Virus record (IMG/VR): IMGVR_UViG_3300023710_000192
DNA: 55,556 nucleotides
Source of the DNA: a virus
Lineage: Duplodnaviria; Heunggongvirae; Uroviricota; Caudoviricetes
Reading direction: 5' to 3' (one strand)
Every line of letters begins with the position of its first letter. The first letter of the stretch is position 1. A model generated the notes under the pieces. That model saw only the letters and a list, made by a program, of their open reading frames with translations, did no database searches and was not told the origin of the DNA. The position numbers and the translations under genes were made by a program. Positions 14,191 to 48,873 of the stretch are shown piece after piece.

Positions 14191-17100
14191 CTAAAATCTA
14201 TTTACACTTAATCGACTACCTGAGCCATTAAGCTGATTGATTGTTACATCTTCTAAAGCCTGTCTAACACTACGATCTGTTTTAATACAGTTGATAATAT
14301 CAGTTGCATTACTACAGTTTTCAAGTGTAAAGTTGTACTCGGCATTAATCTGAGAGTTCGCAAGATTAGATAGATTACTATTCGGTATTGCAAGTGGTTT
14401 AAGAATACCATTGACTTGCGGAACAATATTCAACAAATCTTTGATAGCTGAAACATCTTCCGGTGCAACAAATCCTTCACCATTACGTACCCATGCTAAT
14501 CCATCTTCGCCAATCGGTGTTAACTTGCCAATGCCACCGTGAGAGAAGCCACCGACATTTTTGATATTACCTACTGCTTTATGTAAAGCAACAAGTTCAT
14601 CGTACAAACCTGCATTATCAGTATTCAATACCTTACGTAATGCGGTTAAACCGCTTTCTGTTAATACTTTCTTATTCTTTTTGAATAACTCCTGATTAAT
14701 TTTAGTCTTGTAATCAGTTGCTTTACTCTTTTTGCCAGCAGCATAATAATTACTGTTACCAAATATAGCTTCAACTTCAGACTTAATCTTTTGCGTTTCA
14801 CTTTTAGAAATAGAATCTTTTAAAGCTTGAGTTTGAGTATTTAATGCTGATAAGTCTCCCGTTCCTATAGGCGGTACGGTTTTATTTTTATCATCGGTAT
14901 TATCAGAGCCAGTTTGACCACCGTTTTCGCCATTTCCGTCATTTCCACCATTTCCGTCATTTCCACCATTGGTCTTATCGGTTTTGTCTGAATTATCAAA
15001 TGCCTGAATAATACTATCAAGTTTATTTTCTACATTGGTAAGTAATCCGTCTGGAACAGTTATTGCCATTTTGCCATCAACAACAGCACCACTCATAGCC
15101 TTAATACCAGTTTCAAGATGACCTAATGCATCAACGTAATTATACTTTTCGGCATATTCTGTAATTGTTGAATTAATACCATTGATGTTTTCGTTGGTTA
15201 TTGTAAGACTTCTTTCAAGTAACTTATCACGATCTTTCATTTCTTTCTGAAGGTCTTGATAATACTCGTCATACATCTTATCAAGCATTGACTCCATATC
15301 AGAGAAATACTTTTCACGTTCAAGGTCATCACGACTCTCATTAGCATCTTCTAATTGCTGACGTAATCTCTGAGTCTTCATACGACCAGCTTCTGAAGTA
15401 TCACCAACAGAAGCATTAAGTTGTTTCTGAATATTAGAAATATTCGTACTTGCATCCTTTATTTGCTTCTGGTAATCGTAGAGTGATTTTTCCTCGCTTA
15501 AAGATTGTTTCTTGAGATCGACAATCTTTTGCAAAGATTTTGCTTCGGCCTCATACTTTTGAATCATCATGTCAATAGCATTATTTTGAGCATTGGTAAG
15601 TTCAATAATATCACTATTGAGTTCCGATTCAAGTTCCATCATCTTATTATAAAGTTCTTCTTTAGAATGAATTATTCTACCTGCTATGTCTATACCGTCT
15701 TCACTTGAAAAATCATCCTTCATGTCATCAAATGCGTCTTTCATTTTAATAAGAACGGATAAATCTTTCTGCTGCTTTGCAACGGCTACATTCATAGCAG
15801 TAACATAAGTACCCATAGTAGCACGACCTTCACGAGTGAAAGCCCCAGTGTCTTCATCGAACTTGTCAAACTTATCCCAAGTTTGAGAAATTGTGTCCAT
15901 AGTACTTACTATTGCACTTAATTCATCTTTGACTAACTTATGCAAAGATTCAGTAACAGTTGTAATTTGAGTGCCTAATTCTGCAACAGACTTAGTACAT
16001 TCGTCAATAGATGCATTTACGTCGGATAATGCATTCTTTGCATCGTACCATTCGGCAGTACCTACCGGTATTGTAGCAAGTTGTTCTTCAAGCTCTGCCT
16101 TAGACTGTTGATATAATTTACGTTTTTCTTTTTCGTATTTTATCTGGTCTTTATACAATTTACGGTCAACAGTCATACCCTTTGCTTCGGATAATTCTGC
16201 TCTACGATTAATTGCATCTTCTTCGGCTTGTTGAAGTTCTACTTGTCGTTCATAGTGTAATTTAATATTATCGAATTTTTCTTTTTCGAGTTGTATTAAC
16301 TCTTTCTGACGTTCAGCTTCTAGTTGATCAATTTTAGTTTGGTCTTCTGTAAGAGCAGCAATCTTTTTCTCGTATTCATATTTTGTTTCAATATATTCTT
16401 TCTGTTGTTTAAGATAATCGTTACTCTTAAGATAATTGTCACTAATGTCTCCAAAGGCTTTAAGTCTGTTTATATTAGCTTCGGCATCATCAACATAAAG
16501 CTGATACTGTTCTTCTCTAAGTTGACGTACTTGTGTAGTTAATTCGTCAACTTGCTGTTTTGCTTCTTGGGATTTGTCATACCACTCTTTATACTTGTTG
16601 ATAGCTTCAGCAGTGGTTTGACCATATTCCTTGATAAGAGTTTTAATATCGCCATCAATCTTACCCTCTTGAATTTTCTTAATAAGACCACTTGTAAGAA
16701 TTTTTTCTTTCTTGGCAACTTTTTTACCCTTTTTATTTTTAACATAAACTACATTGCCTTTTTTGTCTTTAACTTTCCTAGTAGAAGTCTTGGCAACATT
16801 ATCAGCCTTCTTTTGGTACTTTTCGGCAGCTTTAGCATTATTATTTAATAACTTTGTAGTTTTAGTTATTTGTTGTTCAAGATTTGAAACTTTAGTGTCA
16901 ACAGTAAATAAGTTTTCAAGCTTAGCCCTTGTTTGATCAATAACTTTTTGTAAACGTTCAAGATTACGAGCAATCCAATCTATTTCGGTCTTGTTTGAGT
17001 CTTTAGAAGATTTGCTATTTCCTCCGCCGTTTCCGCCTGCTTTGCCAGATGTATTACCAGCAGTAGCGCCAATTTTTGCATCTTTCTTATTGCTATTAAC

Positions 17101-19304
17101 GGCGTTATCGTATGCTTTTTTTGCACCACGTTCCATGTTTTGAGTTGCTTCAGCATAACCACCCTTACCAGCATTAACACCAGCCGATTGTTTTGCCTTT
17201 GCTAATCTTGTAAGTGCAGTAACAGCATCATCGCTATATGACACTAATTGCGCCAATGCTAAACAATCAGCAGCAGTAGCAATTGATAAATTATTAACAT
17301 GTAATTTTTCTGCTGTAAGATTAAATAAACTACCAGAAGTTATGTTTGCTTGAGATGCTTCAGTTGCTAAAGCGGCAGCTTCTTGGCTAGTCATATTGGC
17401 CAAATCAATACCGGCTAATTTAGCTTGTACTTTCGAATCAGTACAATTATTCATTACATTTGTTAAGTCAGTTTCGGCTTTTTGTAAATCAAATTGCGTT
17501 AAAGCCAATCTTGATTCAACAACCTCGTCAGCATTTATTACACCGATCTTTTCTAATTCAGATTTAGTATATTCTGCATTGCTTTCAGTTAAATTTTGAA
17601 GCAATGTTCCATGATCAATATAAAAAGTCGCTAATTTATTAAGAGCATTTTGCTGTGCCTCAACATCGTTTGGCATTTCAGTAACAACTTTTCTAAAATC
17701 ATTAAGAGCTTTTTTAGCACCGGGCATTTTAGCCTCAGTGTCCTCAAGATTTTTCATCAATCCTTCAACACTGTCGGCTGAAACCGTTGTGCCTGAACTA
17801 AAATCACTTATAATATTACCAAAACCACTAAATGCATCTTTAAGTTCATTGAGTGAATCTGTTACATTAACGTCTGGCAGAGAAATAGTTAATGAATCTT
17901 CAACTTCATTTAGTCCTTTTTTAGCTAAACGTTGTAATTCCTTTACCCAAGACTCATAATTTCTACTAGACCTATTAGTAATACTATCGAATATATTATC
18001 AATATTTGCCAAAATACTTTCGGCTTGTTCGGGGGTTGTTTTTAAGAGATAATCAAGTACTAATTCTTTTTCATTACTGGTTAAATTTCCAAAACGTTCA
18101 TTATTATTTAAAGTATTATATATTTTAGAAATTGTATCAGCCATCGAATCATCGTCAACACTTGCCTTAATTTTAACATCTATGTACTCGCCAGATGTAT
18201 ATATTTGATGTTGGAGCCAGTCTATATCAGATTTAATTCGATTATAAAGCTCTTGTTGACTTTTGGTAAGATTATCATAACCAACCTCATCCATAGTTGC
18301 CATCATATCTTCAAGGTCTAATATTCTATCAGCAAATAATGACATTTGATTATCATATTCGGTTATAAATACACCATTTTTTTGTTGTAATTCCTCTAAT
18401 GACCATTTCAAATTATCAAATGTATCAAAACCTTCTTCTTTAATAGCAGACATAACAGCTTCTTTGGTTTCATCATTAGCGGTTTCATAAGCATATACCA
18501 AATCTTGCCATTCTTGGATTTGTTTTTCATTTTCAGCTATTGCTTTATTAACATCTTGCAAATTATCGAACCTAGTAGAATTATTTTCAAATCCATCGTA
18601 TCCACCAACAATTGATATTGGGCCGCCAATATCAATGTCGCTATTTGCATTTTCGTAATCCGATTCGACGGTGCGGACTGCTTTTCTTGCATCAATTTCA
18701 GCTTCTTTTTGTTTTAATCTGATTCGTTCTTCTAATTGTTTATTTTCAGCTTGTAATCTATCTAATTCATCTTGTTCAGTAAGAGTAAGGGTTCCTTTGC
18801 TTTTAAGCTCGTTAATTCTATCTTTAGTTATTTCAAGTTCAGAATTTAAAGACTCAACCTCATCTTTAGTTTTTTGATATTCTTCGGCAGTCTCTTTAAT
18901 CTCGTCTCTAGCTATTTCAGCACGATGAATATAATTATCAATTGCTTCAATGGCTTTAGTAGCAAGAAATGAAACAAGTGTAACTATTGCAGCATTTAAT
19001 AATCCGATTCCAATATTTTTTACTACATTTCCTAATTGTGAAAAACCGGATGCTGCAGTTTTAGCATAAGTATCAGCTAAACTTTCACCTTCTTTTAATG
19101 CCAAATTACCAGATTGATAATCTTTTGCTAATTGTATTGCTTTATCATCTATAACACCTAATTCTTTTGCTAATTCTTCGACATTTGAGGTTTTATCAGA
19201 TTGTATTTGTTCAAATAATGAACCGGCATTGGAATCAAGTGGTGTTTTTTTAAATGTTCCCAATAGAGGAGACGACCATCCATTTTCTTTATTGTAATTT
19301 ACAA
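14191..19304 (-). CDS. Tape measure protein, exon 2 (spliced product 3356 aa)
   Basis: Long helical coiled-coil with C-terminal GGFSHGG..GEDGLAWVRNGE motif. The ORF-track start has no SD. Joins exon 1 in frame as GGG T|TT GTA AAT. Confidence 0.85.
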
Positions 19305-19321
19305 CACATAAAACATACATA

Positions 19322-19350
19322 TTGCTTCCAACAATTATGCATGATATAAT
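19322..19350 (+). promoter_or_regulatory. sigmaA-type promoter driving the antisense intron cargo
   Basis: TTGCTT-17 bp-TATAAT with extended -10 TG. SD AGGAGGT precedes ATG 19373. Confidence 0.75.
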
Positions 19351-19372
19351 TAAAAAAATAGGAGGTGGTTAT

Positions 19373-19831
19373 ATGGAAACAATGAAAATGTGCATAAAAT
19401 GTGCAAAAGCCTATGAATCTCAAGTGCTTCCTAATACTACTTTTAATAGAGGAATTTTAGATTTTTATAACGAAGGACATATCAAAAATAATTGTCCTAT
19501 TTGTAATGGTAATTTATTTGAATTAGCACTCGACAAAAATGAACTCGAAATAGTTAAAAAAACATCAATGTCAATAGATTTTATTTTAGCAATGAATGAC
19601 TTAAAAAATAGAGATATAATTGAATTTAATCTCAAAATGTCTCAATTCAAACAAAATATTTTAACACAACAGAATAATAATGTAAATTGCCCTAAATGCC
19701 CAACTTGTGGTTCTACTAATGTAAGAAAAATATCAAGTACAAAACGTTGGTTAAGTACCGGCATTTTTGGTTTAGCAAGTTCAAATGTTGGTAAAAATAT
19801 GGAGTGTTTATCATGTCATAGTAAATGGTAA
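19373..19831 (+). CDS. Intron-encoded antisense Zn-ribbon protein (152 aa), function unknown
   Basis: Four CxxC pairs (CIKC, CPIC, CPTC, CLSC) and the segment WLSTGIFGLASS. No HNH, GIY-YIG or LAGLIDADG motif. The only well-supported plus-strand gene in the morphogenesis region. Confidence 0.85.
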   Translation: METMKMCIKCAKAYESQVLPNTTFNRGILDFYNEGHIKNNCPICNGNLFELALDKNELEIVKKTSMSIDFILAMNDLKNRDIIEFNLKMSQFKQNILTQQNNNVNCPKCPTCGSTNVRKISSTKRWLSTGIFGLASSNVGKNMECLSCHSKW

Positions 19832-20253
19832 AATAATAATCATTAGTAATTATTTGATGTTTTAATTTAATACCATTGTGTTTTTGGAAGTCACCAATGG
19901 TTATAGCTTTTTCGAATTAAAGCACTCAACCTTAATTCAGTGGACTCTACCTTCGTGTATAAATTATTATCCACGCCCACTTGGGAGCCTCTGGGGGCAA
20001 CACTTACTATAAAGCAGTACGTTTCCCTGCTGATTAGAACACTATTCTACATTACGAGTCAAATAGGTCTTTCCAGTCCTTGTACGAGTCTTACGAACAT
20101 CGTAAACTACCCAGCTACGGATAGTTATATCAGTGGTACATATATATAATATGTTTGTTTTTACTTGTGCGCCCTACTGTTAAAACAGGTCTTTGTGTTT
20201 TATCTATGGGTTTTAGCCATAGCACGGGTATACGCACCTGAGCTTGTAAATTA

Positions 20254-23200
20254 ACCCAGCACCTGTTGCACCTTTAAAACCAGCAAATCCAACCAATGCA
20301 GTATTAATTAATCCAAAATTATCAATAATACTTGTTGTTGCCGGTAATATTTTGTTTAATATATCAAGTAAAGTCTTAAGACTATCACTATTAATTGTTA
20401 CATTAGCAAGTTCTTGTAAATGATTCTTTGATTGAGTTATTTTGCCGTCTACAGATTCCAAATATTTATCCAACTCAACCTGCGCCGAACCTTCACTTTT
20501 CTGAGAAGATTTATATACTTCTTCTAATAAATCTGGAGCATTTAAAATTGAAGCAGCTATATTTGCACGGTTTTTACCTGCTATAAATTCAACTAATGCA
20601 TTAGCACGATTAGTTCCGTATTTTTTATCTTCTTCCTGTATTTCTTTATATATTTTTGAAATATCTAATAATATTTCATATGTATTTCTAAGATTGCCAT
20701 TTTCATCTAATACATCAACACCTTTACCCATATTGGAAGCAACAGCGGTAAAGTTTTTAATAGTCTGTTGAGTTTTTGAGTTTGTTTGAACTACAAAATC
20801 TTCTACGTCTTCACCTAAATCTTCAAGTTGTGCTTTTGCTTCTTCCGTTGATGCTATTCTTAAAGAAATAGTTCGAACACCCATAGAAGCCTTAGAAATA
20901 TCTTGTACTTGAGAGTTTGCGGCAGTAAGTAATGCGACAGCCTCATCAATATCGTTACCTTGAGTCTGTAATACGGCTGCTGTATTTTGAAGACCTTGTG
21001 CTAATTTATCCGTAGAAATACTGAAATTGTTACCAATATTGTTAAGTTTATCAACAATTTCAATTTTATCAAGATTTTTATACGCCTGACTTGCAGACAC
21101 TAACGCTTCAGTTGCTTCATTTATATTTTCAAATTCGGATACATTAAGAAGTATATTGGAAACCTTTGCAGATTCGGATGCATCTTCCATTGCCTCTCCT
21201 AGTCTTAACCAATCGGCCGTAGAATTTTGAATGGTAAGAGCTGTGGCACCAACAGAATCTCCAACTTCGAAAGTAGTAGAAGCGTAATCTTTTAAAGAGG
21301 AAACGGACTCGTCGCTAACTTTACGCATTTCAGTAAGTGCAGTATCGTATTCACGAACTGTATCAGCGGCCTCTCTTACATATCTAATTATGTCATAGAA
21401 ACTTGCAAATGTTGATACATATGCAGCTAAAGACTGAAACCTTTGCTTAAGAGTATCACCAAAAGATTTACCTAATTTATCAGCGTCTGCGACTCTAGCT
21501 TTAAGACCGCTAATTTTATTTTGTAAATTGTCTAATGCCTCTGAAGTTAAATTGCTACTATTCTTTAACTCAGACATAATAGATCTAATTTCTTCACCGA
21601 ATTGTCTTTCGGCTTTACTATTTTGATTTACCCATGTCGCAAAACGAGCATACATATCTTTTTGACGAGTAAGATTTGTTTGTGTTTGTTTCGCAACATT
21701 TTGTTCTGCTTTAGCTTGTTTCTCCGTAGCTTTTGTAACAGCAGTGATATTCCTTAAAGATTCTTGAGCTGCTTTTTTGTCTACGTTACCCTTGTTTTCA
21801 ATGGTTTCTATTTCTTTGTTGAGAGCATTAATACGTTCAGTAGAACCTTTAATTGCTGCAGCGTTGCCTGAGACAATTGCAGAATTTAAGTTTCCGGCTT
21901 CCGTAGATCTCTTTGCTAATAAAGATTCATATTCACGTTGAGCCTGTGCAGCTTCTTTAGTGGCTTTTGCTTCAGCATTTTTCTGTGCAGTATATTCTTC
22001 AGAAGTTTTAATATTTCTATCGAGAAGATCACCATTAGCACCAACCCATGCATAACCATTCTTACCTACTAAACGATAAGATGCTTTATAAGTATCATCA
22101 GAGTCTTTTCGTATTCTTTGATATACATCAACAACGCCGCCAAGTTGTTCTTTTAGATCATCGGATATTTTTATCATATCCTCGAATTGAGAAATGTCTA
22201 TTTTATTCTCCGAAACAACTTCGCCTTCTTCTTTAATGGCTTCTGCAGCTTTTTCTATGCTTTCAGCCGTATCAAAGCCGGATTCTGCAACCTTTTGGTT
22301 AGCAATTACAAATTGCTCTTTCTGTACTGCAGATTTCTCAGCAACTTTACCTTCTTCTTCAATAGCTGCAGTAGCATTCTCTATGTTATCAACATTTGAA
22401 TATGTATCTGTGGCTTGATTGAGTGAGTCATATCCTTTTTTAAGATATTCCTCTAAAATTTCTTCCCCACCATATGCCTTTAACATATTTTTATAATCAC
22501 TAGATGCATCAGGTGGATTATTCACAAAATCATATAAGAGTCGAATAGCTTCGGCTGTACCATTGGCCTCATCTATTACATATCCAAAATGTTCCCTTAA
22601 TTCATCAAGAAAATTTAATGCATCAGAGCCAGAATTTCTTAATTGAAGTTTTTTCTGAACATGATTCCACTCGTCTTCTCCAATGTTAGCCCTATCATCG
22701 CTAGAAATTTTTATATGCCCTTTTGTAATAAATTTCTTTATTTCTTCCCATTCGGCATATTCTCCACCAAGTTGTTCCCTGACTCCCTTAGAATTTGACA
22801 AGGCACCAATTACGCCGTTAATATTCATGTCATTGCCAGATGACATTAATTGGAAAAGTTCTTTAATTTCTTCTTTTAAATTTCTAACTTTTTCCCCGGT
22901 GCCAAGAAATTCATTGGCAATTTGTTGAGCAACTTCTTCTGAAACTTGATCAAGACGTTTTTCATCAGTAATTAAAGTTTCAACGGCTTCTCGTGTTTTA
23001 TCCACGGAAGTTTCAACATCTTTATCATATGTTTTAACAGGTTCTTCATTGACTATTTTAACACTGGCAATAATATTATCGAATTTGTCAATGATTTCAT
23101 CTAACTGTTGAGAAAAATGACTAAACGATTCTCCAAATAAATCCTTCTGAGATATTTCTGTTAAAAGAGTGCATATTTTTTCAAGTTGGCCTATAACTTC

Positions 23201-25210
23201 AGATAAATCAACGCTATCCATTTCGTGCATCTTTTGAATAAATTCTTTTTCGGATTCATTCGCAGAGTCAAGTTTTTTATTTAAGTAAGCATTTGTGCTA
23301 CTTGGCGTACTTAATTTATCTACCATTTGAGATAATTCAGATGTAGATCTTACTTGTCGCTTTATATTCTTGATATTATTTTTAATATCATTTTTCTCAT
23401 CTTTATTAGATGTATTTTTTAATTTATCCTGCGCATAATCTAAATCTTTATTAAGTAACTCAACTTCTTCTCTTAATTCGCTTCTTACTTCTTTAAACCT
23501 AACTAAAAATTCACGTATGCGATTTATCTGCTCCATAGGATTATTTATAGATGCAACAGCGTCTTTTGAGAATAAAGAAAATAAATCGTCCGAAGAACTA
23601 CCAAGACCAGATGATTTATTTAATACATTACCCATAGTAGAAAATAATTTTTCTTCATCGCCAAAGGCTTTTACAATCTTATTGTAAGATTGCATTAGCT
23701 TATCACGCTCACTGGATATCAATAAATCAGAAGCACTACCAAAATTTTCACCCTGTTTAATCTCAATATTGTAAATTCCAGTTCCTATTTTTTCACGCAT
23801 TTTATCAAGTTTGTAAAACAATTTATCCAAACTTTCCATCAAATTAGAGAAACTAGATTTCTCATCAACCGTGCCTAAAGTAGTAGCAATATTTTTAAGT
23901 TGTTGCTCAATCCTTTCAAGAACATTTAAAAAAGAGGTTAATTCTTCAGAATTAAACCCCTTTGACATTTTTTCTGATAAACCTTCTCCACCAGTACCGC
24001 CAGTAGATTTGAGTTTATTTTTTAGTTCGTCAATTTCTTTTTCTAATCTTTCAACCTCTGCAACTTTTTGATCCCAACTCCAAGAGTCAATAGAATAATA
24101 TATCTCTGTATCTAATTCATAAATTCTATCTTTAAGAGCTACAATTTTTATTCGGGCTTCTTCATAATCTTTAGCAAGTTCATCATATGCCTCATTAGTA
24201 GGGGCGTTATCTATAATATTCTGTAATCGTAATATTTCATCATATAACTCATTAACCTTTTGTTGTGTCTTATCTATTTCAGAAACATCACCAATTACGT
24301 TTTCAGTAATAGAACCTTGTTTTAAATTGGTAAATTGATCTTTTGGTATATATATTTTTTTACTTAAAGATTCAAATATATCTTCGAGATCTCTAACTTC
24401 AACACCCATTTCTGAGAGTGTTTGAATCATATCACCAGCACTCTTTTGAAATCTTGCCCACTGTTCGTCATCGACTTCTAAGAATTTATTATCAGCAGAC
24501 ATATCTTTGATTTGCTGCAATTGCGTTTTAGTTTCTTCAAGAATCTTGTCTCTTGTGTTCATTAAGGCTTCTTGTTTTTCACGTTCCGCTTGTTTAACAG
24601 CATTAGCGGTTTCTTTTGCTATCTGCGTTTGTTGTTTATATACTTTATATTGTTCGTTTGCCCAATTTTCATTGGCCTCATATTTGACATCAAAAGATCC
24701 TTTTTTTACGTTTGATAAAGCTGCATTAATATTCTTCTGAAATAAAGCTTGCAAATAATCTTGCTTAAAAACATCGGATTTATTAAATATAGCATCAAAC
24801 ATATTTTGATACTCAGAAGTTATTTCTTGACCATATTTTTCAGAGTATGTTTTAATAGTAGCAAATGCTTTTAAAAATTCTTTTTCAAAACCACTTATGT
24901 TTTCTGTACTAATTTTTGAAATGTCAAAACTTTTTAATGAATCATCAAGTATTTTTTTTGCTTCACCAATCTGTTTTTTTAGTGCTTTGGTGTTCCATAA
25001 TTCAATATTAGTTCTTGATGTGTTTTTTGCTTCATTTCTTATTTCTTCAAGAGTTTTAGCAATCGGTTTTAATTCTTTATCATCCGCCTTTGGAGATACT
25101 CTTGTACTATTTATTTCATTTTGTTTTTCCAATATATTATTTAATTGACTTATTAATCCATCTAATGAAGACGTATCGACACCGCCACTACCACTGATTC
25201 CTTTAGGCAT
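20254..25210 (-). CDS. Tape measure protein, exon 1
   Basis: TP901-like TMP core (VREYDTALTEMRKVS...WLRLG...GLQNTAAVL...GVRTISLRI). The ORF runs 13 codons into the intron before stopping. SD AGGAGG. Confidence 0.88.
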
Positions 25211-28153: not shown

Positions 28154-29185
28154 CTATATTTCTGATAAAGATTTTTGTTCTACTTGTTTAATCCCGTTTT
28201 CATCAAAATATTTCCCAATGTTTTCATCCGCAGATATATCAGTATAAAGATTCACCATATCTGCCGACTCCCAATTTACAATATCTTGAATAACATTGGT
28301 TGGGATATTGTTTTTAACTAACATGGTCGTGAAATAATGACGTAAACTATGCCAGTAAAAATCTTTACCAAGAAATCTACTAAAACTATCTTTCCAACCA
28401 TCCATAGTTTCGGTACTCATTTGTTTTGTTGGATCGTTTTTATCAGGGAATAACCATTCACTTTCAATACCTTCTTCTTTTCTTTGTTTCATCCATAGTT
28501 CAAGATAAGGATCAAATGGTTTCTTCAATACATATAAATAGATTTTTTTACCTTGACTTCCACGACCTTTTGTAACAACCTTTTCGTTTGTTTTATAAAG
28601 AGAACCAAATATAACATTCTCATCATTAAAATATTCAACTTTAAATCTAGGAATTTCAGCTTTTCGTCTACCAGAATTGCAACATAAACTTACAACTGCA
28701 GCTTGCTTATATTTTTCTTTTTCTACTAAGTGATCGAGTAAAGATTGTATTTCCTCATCGGAGAAAATAGTTTTTTCTCTAACCGGTTGATTAACTGGAG
28801 ACTCTATTTTTTTAATAACGCTTTTATAACCACTGTATTCTTCCTCTTCATCAAGAATATTTTCTATATAATTTGAAAGAGAAGATATAACTGATTTTAC
28901 ACGTCTTGTTCTTTTAGGACTCCAACCCCACGTATCAATTGCATGACTTTGAAATCTGGCAAACTCACGTTTTGTTATTTCAGTAAATCTTTTATTATTA
29001 TTATTTTCTAAATTATATACAAAGAATATTCTTAAATCCGCTTTATATTGTTCTATTGTTCTTGGAGATCTATCTATTGATTTTAGATAGTCCAAAAAAT
29101 CATTCATTAGTTCCTTATTTTCAGGAAGAATCTGTGATATGGACTCTTCGTTAGTTATATTATTATAGACAGTAGTTCTACCCAT
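28154..29185 (-). CDS. Tyrosine recombinase in the tail region (SPbeta YomM-like position)
   Basis: SGRRKAE (R), TKGRG (K), HSLRH (HxxR), NW.S..MV.LY (W/Y). Confidence 0.85.
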   Translation of the reverse strand: MGRTTVYNNITNEESISQILPENKELMNDFLDYLKSIDRSPRTIEQYKADLRIFFVYNLENNNNKRFTEITKREFARFQSHAIDTWGWSPKRTRRVKSVISSLSNYIENILDEEEEYSGYKSVIKKIESPVNQPVREKTIFSDEEIQSLLDHLVEKEKYKQAAVVSLCCNSGRRKAEIPRFKVEYFNDENVIFGSLYKTNEKVVTKGRGSQGKKIYLYVLKKPFDPYLELWMKQRKEEGIESEWLFPDKNDPTKQMSTETMDGWKDSFSRFLGKDFYWHSLRHYFTTMLVKNNIPTNVIQDIVNWESADMVNLYTDISADENIGKYFDENGIKQVEQKSLSEI

Positions 29186-33288: not shown

Positions 33289-33929
33289 TTATAGACTCAC
33301 AATTTCAAACTTAAGTTCTGCAACAATACTATCCTTAGTATTACGAATTATAAGTATCTTACCAAGATAATCCTCGTCTCCAAGGAATTTGATTTTGATC
33401 TTGTTTTCGTCATCAGTTGTTAATGTCTGAATTAATTCTCCTACATTAACATCATCAATCCAATACGACCATTCTCCCGGCATTTGATTTGTAATTATTT
33501 CGTCGGAATTATAGTATGTAATAGTTATTGTTTTATAAGAACCATTTACTTTGAGTTGCGGCTTTGCACCTGAATAGGTTATTATTGCATAGTCCTCGGC
33601 TTCTGCCGGATTAATTGGTTCGTCTTGTTGAACATTACCTTCTTTCTTAAGGTCTGCCCATGCAGCAATCCAATTACCATCTTTATCAACTTCAATTACA
33701 TCAGTGTCAGGATTAAACAAATCTTGCACACATGTATAGTGTATAACTCCTAATGGATTTATACCTTCAACCTTACTGATTTTCCATGTAATTGGAACAA
33801 CTAAAGGTGGCGATATAATTAGTCGTTGATTATAGTATACTGTTTTAGAAATATCGTTGTACGGAAGAATAAACTTACGTTGATTCTCTATACTGGATAT
33901 TTTGTAATCCGTCCAAATTCCAGAATTAT
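33289..33929 (-). CDS. Head-tail joining/structural protein, exon 2 (spliced product 393 aa)
   Basis: Frame is open from 33929 (AT AAT TCT GGA ATT TGG...) and runs through the track ORF 33289-33729. The splice gives ...GRSQNS-Y-NSGIWTDYK... Confidence 0.8.
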
Positions 33930-35210
33930 CAAATATGTTACTTTATCAGTTCGTTAAGCTGATAAAGAATTATTTATATTATAGTAATTACAATAACATT
34001 TATATTTTCTTTGTAAAAACAGGTTAGCATCTTTATATATCCAGTCTAAAAAAGTTTTAACAACATTTCTTCCACTTAATGTAAATACTTTTGTGACTCC
34101 GTTATGACACGAAGCATCATAAATACTAGCATTTATATTAAGTGTATTTTTACAAGTATCCTTTAATTCATTACAAAAGTCTTCGGTGGCAGTGATAGTA
34201 ATATTTATATGGGTATTATTTTCATTTATATAATAATTAGAAATACTACCATCTCCATCAAAAACACCACGTACATAATGTGATATTAAATCTTTATCTA
34301 ACCAAGTAGGAAAACCTATTGTAAGACTCTTATTAGGTATAATTCCTTTGTCATTGAGTTGATTACACATGTGAGTACTAAACATTAATAAACGATATTG
34401 ATTTTTATATGTATACCCAAAATCATGTTTGTTTGAATAATCAATGAATTCCAAAGGTTTTTCACTCCCAATTTCTAGTCTCATTTTTTCAAGTATGTCT
34501 TTATCATCTTCTTGTAATGAAATAGAAATTGTTGCTTTATCTAAATTATTACATCCATCGGAATGTAAAAAACCCAAAATATAGGCTTTATTAGGAGTGT
34601 CAATAATATCAAAATAATGCTCATTTAATTTATATTTCCTAACAAAACGTTTTTGATCTACTTCGACTTCCATTTTGTGTAAAGCTTTTAATATTATTTT
34701 ATGACTACAACCATATTTTTTCCCAATTTTTACCGATGATTCTCCGTTAAGATATGAATATTTAATATCAATTAACTGTTCTTGTGAAAATATTATTTTG
34801 TTATATACTTCTTTACCATTTTTATACATTGTTATTTCCTCCTAAAATAAGCAATAAAAAAGACCATAATCGTTATATAGGAGGTATAACGAAACGGGAG
34901 CTACCCGCTGTCTGGTCTGTTTATTAATATAATATAAATAATTTTTCTCTACCTTTCAGTAGAAGTTCAGAGTACATCAACACCATATCCATAAAGACTT
35001 AGGTGGTTCCCGTTAAGGTCACTTGACCGTATACTCGTTGAACACATTCCTATTCGGAACTTCGCTGCGTCGATTATCCAATCCAATAACTTTTTAAAGC
35101 ATTCACGTTTGAGTTTGTTTCATCTCTACGTTGTAGCATATTGGCTCTAAGGAATTTCCCGCAATTAGAGAACTTTCGACATATGGTTTCCCATATGAAG
35201 CGCATAATCT
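33930..35210 (-). ncRNA. Group I intron (1281 nt) with LAGLIDADG homing endonuclease
   Basis: AAUUGCGGGAA (35156-66), UUCAACGAGUA, P7 GAGUA (35032-36) / UACUC (34970-74), GAAA-capped P9. 5' site after U35211; P10 GAUUAU/AUAAUU; terminal G at 33930. Confidence 0.88.
33954..34829 (-). CDS. LAGLIDADG homing endonuclease (two motifs)
   Basis: AYILGFLHSDG and YVRGVFDGDGSI; SD AGGAGG. Confidence 0.9.
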   Translation of the reverse strand: MYKNGKEVYNKIIFSQEQLIDIKYSYLNGESSVKIGKKYGCSHKIILKALHKMEVEVDQKRFVRKYKLNEHYFDIIDTPNKAYILGFLHSDGCNNLDKATISISLQEDDKDILEKMRLEIGSEKPLEFIDYSNKHDFGYTYKNQYRLLMFSTHMCNQLNDKGIIPNKSLTIGFPTWLDKDLISHYVRGVFDGDGSISNYYINENNTHINITITATEDFCNELKDTCKNTLNINASIYDASCHNGVTKVFTLSGRNVVKTFLDWIYKDANLFLQRKYKCYCNYYNINNSLSA

Positions 35211-35751
35211 ACGAATTCTGGCTTCTTCCAACACCCCAACAATGATATTTCTTACCGTTATATATCCATTTAAAGTCGTAATCACAGAATAATATTGACC
35301 AATTCGGGAAATCTCCGTTGTCGGTATTAGCACCAGCAACAATCATCCACCTACGATAGATACCCTTTTCATCTGGCAAATCGAGATAAAGACCAATCGG
35401 GAATTCACTCCCACACTTCTTTTCAAAAAGTTCATTGTAGTATGGTACATTACACCTATAGCTTGGTTTAAACATTATTCTGTAATCTACATTATCTTTA
35501 TCCAAAGTTTGATATGTATTGATTATAAACTTTACATCAACCGGTATCTTAGTTTTAGACTTTTCTGGGTTAAGACCAATATTCTTATCTGGTTCATCAT
35601 CATATTCATAAGAGTAGAGATAACCAACATAAGATGTCGGATCGTCATACCATGTATATTCAACAATATCTTGTGATTCATGAGTATGAACTTTACCGAC
35701 AGTATTACCCTTACTAAGCATTAGTTTTTGATAATCTGAAAAACTAGGCAT
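35211..35751 (-). CDS. Head-tail joining/structural protein, exon 1
   Basis: ORF ends at a TAG whose T is the last exon base (541 nt, phase 1), matching the phase of exon 2. Confidence 0.8.
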
Positions 35752-48801: not shown

Positions 48802-48873
48802 TAGCGGAGACAGGAATTGAACCTGCTACCTTCGGGGCATGAACCCGTTATGCATCCGTTACACTTCTCCGCA
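48802..48873 (-). tRNA. tRNA-Met(CAT), initiator-like
   Basis: Cloverleaf TGCGGAG...CGGG-TTCATGC-CCCG...GCAGG-TTCAATT-CCTGT-CTCCGCTA. 1:72 mismatch and three G-C pairs in the anticodon stem; no CCA. Confidence 0.85.

Follow-up and report, generated by a model that had tools for sequence, protein, structure and literature searches.

A spliced group I intron in the tape measure gene of an SPbeta/Sundance-like phage, probably housing a resident antisense zinc-ribbon gene and a cargo loop of free size

The virus record IMGVR_UViG_3300023710_000192 (Caudoviricetes; 55,556 nucleotides (nt), the whole stretch that was analysed and hereafter the window) harbours on its minus strand a tape measure gene of 3356 amino acids (aa), which is interrupted by a group I intron of 949 nt. 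On the opposite strand of the intron lies a gene predicted to encode a 152-aa zinc-ribbon protein, here also called the cargo gene. The reading that we favour, and consider probable, is a working group I intron that carries a resident antisense gene and whose cargo loop is free in size. The carrier is an SPbeta/Sundance-like temperate phage of gut Bacillota; among named phages, Brevibacillus phage Sundance has the most similar tape measure. An earlier note, made from the sequence of the window alone, had proposed a group I intron in the tape measure gene. This proposal stands, given the P1 and P10 helices and the terminal G, a covarying fold, and the 949-nt junction in the RNA libraries X5-X7.

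Two large minus-strand open reading frames (ORFs) flank the cargo gene, one at 20213..25210, with a PhageMin_Tail domain, and the other at 14191..19320. Both are parts of the same tape measure gene. Exon 1 (20254..25210) ends with GCUGGGU in phase 1, and its ORF as annotated extends into the intron until a stop codon at 20213-20215. Exon 2 (14191..19304) starts with UUGUAAAUUA, which is also the 3' strand of P10. The annotated ATG of exon 2, at 19320, falls within the intron, and exon 2 possesses neither a start codon outside the intron nor a ribosome-binding site. In the intron (19305..20253, minus strand), P1 is formed by CUGGGU (20259-20254) and the guide GCUCAG (20243-20238), with a U.G pair at the 5' splice site between G20243 and the last base of exon 1, U20254. 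The first ten intron bases, UAAUUUACAA (20253-20244), exactly complement UUGUAAAUUA (19304-19295), giving a perfect P10 of 10 base pairs (bp), and G19305, the terminal G of the intron, is placed directly before UUGUAAAUUA. P1 with its U.G pair, the 10-bp P10 and the terminal G together fix the position of the junction.

Joining 20254 to 19304 keeps the reading frame (..GATGAG|FVNYNKENG..) and results in a protein of 3356 aa with zero internal stops. The search with the start of exon 2 among 1.8 billion representative proteins revealed an uninterrupted homologue of 3821 aa (P0051), which reads ..IGSQKLG|LLNYNRNSGG.. at the place of the junction. The joined protein of the window aligns with P0051 in one high-scoring segment pair (HSP), residues 1196-2099, which spans the junction at residue 1652. 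Neither the region nor the surrounding 20 kb had a DNA match by BLAST in 50,697 phage records, and tblastn with the start of exon 2 gave zero matches to the same records.

Public runs containing the stretch included DNA libraries, from which the record probably derives, and libraries labelled metatranscriptomic, all from animal faeces. They were available as contigs, not as reads, and the RNA and DNA libraries belong to different samples. In the RNA libraries X5, X6 and X7 a contig joint omits 949 nt at 19303/4|20253/4, which is the predicted junction. The depths of the intron form (30) and the joined form (19.4) in X5 add up to approximately that of exon 2 (46.4). In X6 and X7 exon 1 directly adjoins exon 2 within the exon 2 contig, and no assembled contig contains the unspliced 3' junction. 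The DNA libraries X1-X3 (52-144x) contain the entire stretch in one unbranched contig of 79,014 nt, in the intron-bearing form only, and the spliced joint was not found in any of these three libraries. A DNA mixture would not lose the 3' unspliced junction alone, which points away from an intron-less DNA variant. The intron is removed exactly at the predicted junction in natural RNA samples, in agreement with the claim of the earlier note that the flanks splice, and it seems to be self-splicing.

The ribozyme core, from P1 to P9.1, occupies 19872..20253 of the minus strand. After the 5' strand of P10 and the guide, it comprises P3 (20136-20132 with 19981-19977), P4 (20076-20073 with 20033-20030), P7 (19989-19985 with 19947-19942) and P9.1 (19901-19872), elements which we take to correspond to the P/Q/R/S consensus of group I introns. 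Six full intron sequences, from the window and the related loci L003, L124, L126, L130 and L131, were aligned (alignment A3). RNAalifold predicted 107 pairs, 55 of them with compensatory changes. A scripted count on the curated pairs plus the P7 pseudoknot gave 108 pairs, 96.3% canonical and 58 compensatory, versus 35-41% canonical and 7-16 compensatory pairs in the control with slid partners. P3, P4, P5, P6, P7, P8 and P9 were recovered by RNAalifold and by our own count, with compensatory changes in P5, P6, P7 and P9. For instance, P7 is GGCUC/GAG(U)CC in five of the aligned sequences and GGUCA/UGA(U)CC in L003. A compensatory change in P1 was found in the more distant locus L136 (CUGGAU/GUUCAG), and P1 of locus L140 is GGGU/GCCC. 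The sequence of P10 differs per locus and is always complementary to the exon 2 of its own locus, as seen in seven loci. The terminal G and a P10 of 6-12 bp are present in L003, L124, L126, L130, L131, L136 and L140; in most loci P10 is unusually long, with 9-12 bp. Judged by these comparisons, the RNA fold is maintained by compensatory changes. Assignment to a subgroup was not possible, because P7.1 and P7.2 were not seen and extra hairpins lie between P3 and P4. A group II intron, suggested by GUGCG just inside the intron, was rejected, as no domain V/VI and no Rfam match were found.

The loop of P9.1 contains the motif CUUCCAA (19884..19890, minus strand), which is complementary to UUGGAAG at 19331-19325. 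The latter sits in the 3' tail of the intron (19305..19372, minus strand), 19 nt before the terminal G, and the tail overlaps the cargo promoter on the other strand. Locus L136 possesses the same loop and tail pair as the window, and L140 has the loop CUUGGAA and the tail UUCCAAG, a compensatory swap with respect to the window and L136. UUGGAAG is also present in the tails of the loci L005 and L121. From these few cases, a 7-bp pairing of the P9.1 loop with the tail appears to tether the distant 3' splice site. With the splice sites clamped by the tether and P10, the length looped out between them would be irrelevant, which would explain the one to six genes in relatives.

The cargo gene (19373..19831, plus strand) starts with ATG at 19373 and ends with a stop codon at 19829-19831. 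It is preceded by a ribosome-binding site, AGGAGG (19360..19365, plus strand), 7 nt before the ATG. The protein is predicted to consist of an N-terminal zinc ribbon, a three-helix middle and a C-terminal zinc ribbon. It contains four CxxC pairs: CIKC, CPIC, the overlapping CPKC/CPTC, and CLSC. The 152-aa ORF on the opposite strand, its four CxxC pairs and the strong Shine-Dalgarno sequence, all listed in the earlier note, are read in the sequence. Its placement between P7 and the terminal G is also correct: the gene lies after P9/P9.1, where the core ends at about 19872, and is followed by the intron tail.

Homologues of the cargo protein fall in 48 protein clusters at E < 0.01, all of them unnamed, with 35-60% protein identity and invariant columns. 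C109, C112, C145 and C148 are invariant in alignment A1, which also has a conserved helical block with the pattern ..FI.AMD.LK..DIIEFNLKMSQFK.. The C-terminal ribbon is nearly invariant (PKCPTCGST..I...FG..S..C..C..W), and the N-terminal ribbon is variable and absent in some members, such as P0013 and P0016. Besides the four cysteines, a single Asp and several Lys occupy conserved columns of A1; conserved His residues and an acidic cluster are lacking. The AlphaFold model has a mean pLDDT of 73.5, with a confident three-helix middle. On the strength of this conservation, we regard the antisense gene as genuine and conserved.

The search with Pfam, PHROGs and NCBIfam detected only sub-threshold zinc-ribbon matches for the cargo protein, and PADLOC gave zero matches. 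ESM Atlas returned only generic likenesses to zinc ribbons or helical bundles. The matches of Foldseek and VIA-align in PDB, AlphaFold DB clusters and BFVD were limited to zinc ribbons and a generic bundle of three helices, with Z <= 5.7. No nuclease family or fold and no defence family was matched in these sequence and fold searches, so that the absence of a nuclease motif reported in the earlier note holds at the level of families at threshold and of folds. By these searches, the protein is not a known kind of nuclease and the gene is no recognisable homing endonuclease. Weak similarity was seen between the C-terminal ribbon and the zinc-containing DNA-binding heads of IS1595, IS1 and IS256 transposases, so that nucleic-acid binding is a reasonable guess. 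Most likely, the protein is a small nucleic-acid-binding factor.

Relatives of the intron at the same tape measure site were found via contigs encoding the cargo protein and via a pattern of the core. Full relatives are L003, L124 (identical to L132), L126, L130 and L131; L009 and L129 are partial. The cargo layout recurs in L003, L009, L124, L126, L129, L130, L131, L136 and L140. Every intron relative found possesses at least one member of the zinc-ribbon family, antisense and adjoining the 3' splice site, and in all contexts examined the family adjoins a tape measure gene or a fragment thereof. One cargo gene is present in L003, L124, L129 and L131, and two in L126 and L130. The two genes of L130 (558-1356, antisense to the tape measure gene) are tandem paralogues in one intron. 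One of them, of 84 aa, keeps the N-terminal ribbon and the helical block and lacks the C-terminal zinc ribbon. Searches of viral contigs with the exon 2 start and with the cargo protein gave no related loci. A scan of viral contigs with the 14-mer CAAGGACTGGAAAG gave 111 loci, essentially all chance matches according to a BLAST check. The longer core pattern identified one true viral locus; five out of eleven metagenome loci with this pattern were true, and the other six were GC-rich chance matches.

Larger introns were found in more distant loci. In L136, at the same site, a diverged core was detected by nhmmer (E = 5e-28) in an intron of about 1.8 kb with an extra gene of 180 aa. In L140 and L141, from two samples, the tape measure halves are separated by 5,745 nt (L140 5916-11662). 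The 5' border in L140 reads GGGU|UAAC.., the guide is GCCC, P10 is perfect over 12 bp, and the terminal G is present. The junction is in frame (..AKGLG|FVNYDTNG..), and one HSP to the window protein runs across it. The interval encodes six ORFs on both strands, namely the zinc-ribbon gene and five others, including an NsnA-like/GmrSD_N defence-type gene (PADLOC, E = 2.5e-33), a YARHG protein and a DUF6338 membrane protein. In the human-gut phage scaffold MT837120.1 (5060-7667), the tape measure ORF runs across a 5' splice site with a P1-like pair, CUGGGU and, 27 nt downstream, GCCCAG. Next come a structured block and several small ORFs in both orientations, and a homologue of the zinc-ribbon gene is located at the end of the contig.

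The slot between the core and the 3' tail is real and free in size, with one to six genes and 0.9 to 5.7 kb. The earlier note had suggested that the cargo may be swappable, to be checked by asking whether related tape measure loci carry different cargoes at the same site. This is correct for the additional genes, which vary at the site and include NsnA/GmrSD_N. The zinc-ribbon gene itself is constant in the relatives found and was not swapped. Its constancy at the 3' splice site and its tape measure context fit a resident, intron-linked gene better than a free cargo.

In the mechanism that we propose, the first approximately 380 nt of the intron form the ribozyme, from P1 to P9.1. The last approximately 65 nt supply the proposed tether motif and the terminal G, followed by the partner of P10 in exon 2. 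Between core and tail, the space is occupied by a complete gene of the opposite strand, with its own predicted promoter and ribosome-binding site. P10 and the 7-bp pairing of the P9.1 loop with the tail would return the distant 3' splice site to the core. The zinc-ribbon protein would be made from transcripts of the host RNA polymerase, outside the late programme. Since relatives hold further genes at the same spot, the intron seems to be a carrier of accessory genes.

A different role for the protein, somewhat unlikely in our view, is that of a mobility or maintenance factor of the intron, either as a new homing endonuclease or as a nuclease-free DNA-targeting protein that provokes recombination. 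Intron, gene and exon 2 start would then spread together. The main argument for it comes from L121 (4260-12800), L122 (188-8400), L005 (1-10400) and L123, which harbour three or four tandem units each, every unit consisting of a 5' fragment of exon 2 (minus strand) and a zinc-ribbon paralogue (plus strand), and resembling leftovers of repeated conversion. The units are located upstream of a full exon 2-like gene without a start codon and with choline-binding repeats, and an S24/HTH repressor gene is close by. Neither exon 1 nor the ribozyme core was found within 11 kb for the arrays of L005, L121 and L122. The arrays look like the residue of repeated recombination that moved gene, tail and exon 2 start together. 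The presence of the family in every intron relative, beside the 3' splice site and always near a tape measure gene or fragment, also agrees with a mobility factor, as does the weak likeness of the C-terminal ribbon to transposase heads. However, no nuclease family or fold was matched, and the conserved columns lack the His or acidic cluster that a nuclease would need. In addition, P0013 and P0016 do without the N-terminal ribbon and one paralogue of L130 without the C-terminal one, and an antisense gene with a housekeeping-type promoter is unusual for phage intron endonucleases. A further zinc-ribbon homologue was found in L138 (5600-9700), beside a PhageMin_Tail gene of 560 aa, in an element with Bro-N/ANT, PemK and integrase genes. 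This locus may represent the same arrangement in a decayed or satellite-like form.

The predicted cargo promoter (19322..19350, plus strand) consists of TTGCTT (19322-19327), a 17-nt spacer and TGaTATAAT (19342-19350), and its -35 hexamer begins 17 nt from the splice-site G19305. The earlier note had described a consensus promoter. Sequence, spacing and distance from the splice site are as described, although the -35 agrees with TTGACA at three out of six positions only, and for this reason the site is absent from the list of the consensus scan. From its sequence, it is a promoter of the extended -10 type with a perfect -10 and a weak -35, rather than a full consensus. Boxes similar to -10 were found 28-49 nt before the start codon in eight out of eleven loci examined, five of them with TG. 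An operator 13-mer of the SPbeta type was not found near the cargo promoter.

RNA contigs that cover the intron start at 19368 (X6 and X9) and 19383 (X7), which is 10-25 nt past the start site predicted from the -10 box. In X6, X7 and X9, the 64 nt from the 3' splice site to the contig start are uncovered, and the adjacent intron is covered 10-20x. The onset of RNA cover just past the promoter is irrespective of the level of tape measure RNA. In X9, exon 2 beside the intron is uncovered, and 19368-20720 is covered at 15.7x; this stretch would correspond to a long transcript antisense to the tape measure gene. As an excised intron or a pre-mRNA would also cover 19305-19367, plus-strand RNA from the cargo promoter is the simplest reading. 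The contigs are suggestive of plus-strand transcription from the predicted promoter, which continues across the core and approximately 470 nt into exon 1. The claim of an own promoter is consistent with these contig starts, in which the strand is not visible. That the cargo gene sits silently inside the tape measure gene, as the earlier note supposed, is doubtful, because the transcript in X9 seems to cross the core and about 470 nt of exon 1.

It is also conceivable, though quite improbable, that the antisense transcript itself matters, and that convergent transcription or the pairing of cargo RNA with the intron gates splicing or tape measure expression, so that the late gene is held down until cargo transcription ceases. 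The cover of X9 from 19368 through the entire core to at least 20720, the overlap of the promoter with the tether motif and the lack of a strong terminator in the window would all suit such gating. Nevertheless, the identity of 35-60% with invariant columns indicates that the protein is under selection, and the exon 2 contigs of X6 and X7 are all spliced despite equal or higher cover of the cargo region. Moreover, the cargo strand of relatives has AGCUUUUUC directly after GC-rich P9.1 hairpins, a combination that would stop read-through at this place. Hardly credible is a locus without splicing, in which an inserted moron separates two genes and the junction contigs derive from an intron-less DNA variant: the libraries labelled as RNA may contain DNA, they do not share samples with the DNA libraries, and Rfam found no intron, yet exon 2 lacks a start codon outside the intron and a ribosome-binding site, the junction agrees with the P1/P10 prediction to the base, X6, X7 and X9 show the 5' and not the 3' unspliced junction, which a DNA mixture would not, the fold covaries strongly, including P7, and P10 follows the exon 2 sequence in seven loci.

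Several observations weigh against the working intron with a resident gene that we prefer. P1 (within A3), P3 and P4 are invariant and are not tested by the alignment, and the two extra hairpins between P3 and P4 are atypical. The group I model of Rfam, RF00028, gave no match at gathering score or at E = 10 with the window, with a 1351-nt piece or with a 391-nt piece of the core. Covariation of the tether amounts to one compensatory case (L140), and in the subgroup of L003 and L124 the loop seems to pair locally with a conserved GAGUAG just downstream. The 5' block of L140 matched the core of the window by neither blastn nor nhmmer, and Rfam gave no group I match with L140; the block resembles this core in a P9.1-like hairpin alone, and is a putative ribozyme. 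No intrinsic terminator after the cargo ORF passed the scan in the window, and the transcript seemingly reads through. Contigs cannot reveal strand, exact transcript ends or DNA carry-over, and the samples of the RNA and DNA libraries differ.

Group I introns of phages are thought of as selfish ribozymes with at most a homing endonuclease gene on the sense strand. In the giant ND5-717 intron of hexacoral mitochondria, the housed genes have the sense orientation and belong to the mitochondrial core set, not to accessory or defence functions. We know of no report of a resident signature gene in that intron. Similar to the introns described here, ND5-717 holds several unrelated genes in a peripheral loop, with splice sites kilobases apart (PMC6545197), although it is organellar. 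Nuclear introns of the ribosomal DNA (rDNA) with antisense His-Cys box genes, for example L2066 (PMC9548176), also possess a protein gene opposite the ribozyme strand. These genes are recognisable homing endonucleases in eukaryotic rDNA, whereas the present intron lies in a protein-coding gene of a phage and its antisense gene has a bacterial promoter and no nuclease motif.

The introns TMP-IVS1, IVS2 and IVS3 in tape measure genes of Bacillus cereus-group prophages (Tourasse and Kolsto 2008, PMC2504315) resemble the window intron: P1 and P10 are fitted to the insertion site, and different phages harbour related introns at one and the same position. They differ as IA1/IA2 introns with an endonuclease gene that is incomplete or a remnant only, and no independently promoted antisense gene or multi-gene cargo was reported there. 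In contrast to them, the present core has the two extra P3-P4 hairpins and is not detected by RF00028. IStrons, such as CdISt1 of Clostridioides difficile and BcISt1 (PMC3984707, PMC4227781), share the 5' ribozyme, a long coding insert before the 3' splice site, and splicing that renders the insertion harmless. Their cargo, an IS200/IS605 transposon (TnpA/TnpB), mobilises the element, whereas the present intron occupies one fixed site in one gene and its cargo gene is antisense, with a promoter of its own. No transposase family of Pfam, PHROGs or NCBIfam matched the cargo protein. Phage morons, promoter-gene-terminator units in late operons (PMC3594210), are self-contained units in the late structural block of temperate phages, with orientation and promoter independent of late transcription, and the cargo gene seems to resemble them in this respect, apart from the terminator. 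A moron is located between genes and varies among relatives, whereas the cargo gene lies within a gene, is made harmless by splicing and is constant in the relatives found. In the full-text literature, no paper was found on phage introns with antisense, independently promoted non-nuclease or defence genes.

The wider window also possesses genes for a portal, a tail fibre, an endolysin and two tyrosine recombinases, and nearly all genes are on the minus strand. The tyrosine-recombinase ('integrase') genes are at 1-1083 and 28154-29185 (minus). One of the two lies amid the tail genes, an arrangement also seen in Brevibacillus phage Sundance. Another structural gene, at 33289-35751 (minus), is likewise split, with a putative intron, and the ORF 33954..34829 in this region matches phrog_4645 'endonuclease' (E = 3e-52). 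This second putative intron gave no match to RF00028 of Rfam. The sole Rfam match at gathering score in the window is a tRNA gene at 48802-48873 (minus).

RF00028 has been reported to miss under-sampled subgroups and phage variants (PMC11878797). It overlooks the intron type described here, and gene callers split such tape measure genes into two. The zinc-ribbon proteins represent an intron-linked family, with 48 clusters in this search, and the loop-to-tail tether together with the long P10 is a candidate RNA device for holding splice sites together over kilobases. A broader reading is possible, and we put it forward tentatively: the intron family may be a dedicated gene-carrying platform of gut Bacillota phages, with a ribozyme 'clip' that accommodates kilobases of accessory or defence genes within an essential virion gene at no cost and moves between phages by recombination at the tape measure site, and with the zinc-ribbon protein as its own DNA-targeting or mobility factor of an undescribed class. 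If the proposed arrangement is true, accessory cargo can reside within an essential structural gene, and introns would be a third route for accessory genes of temperate phages, besides morons and intergenic hotspots.

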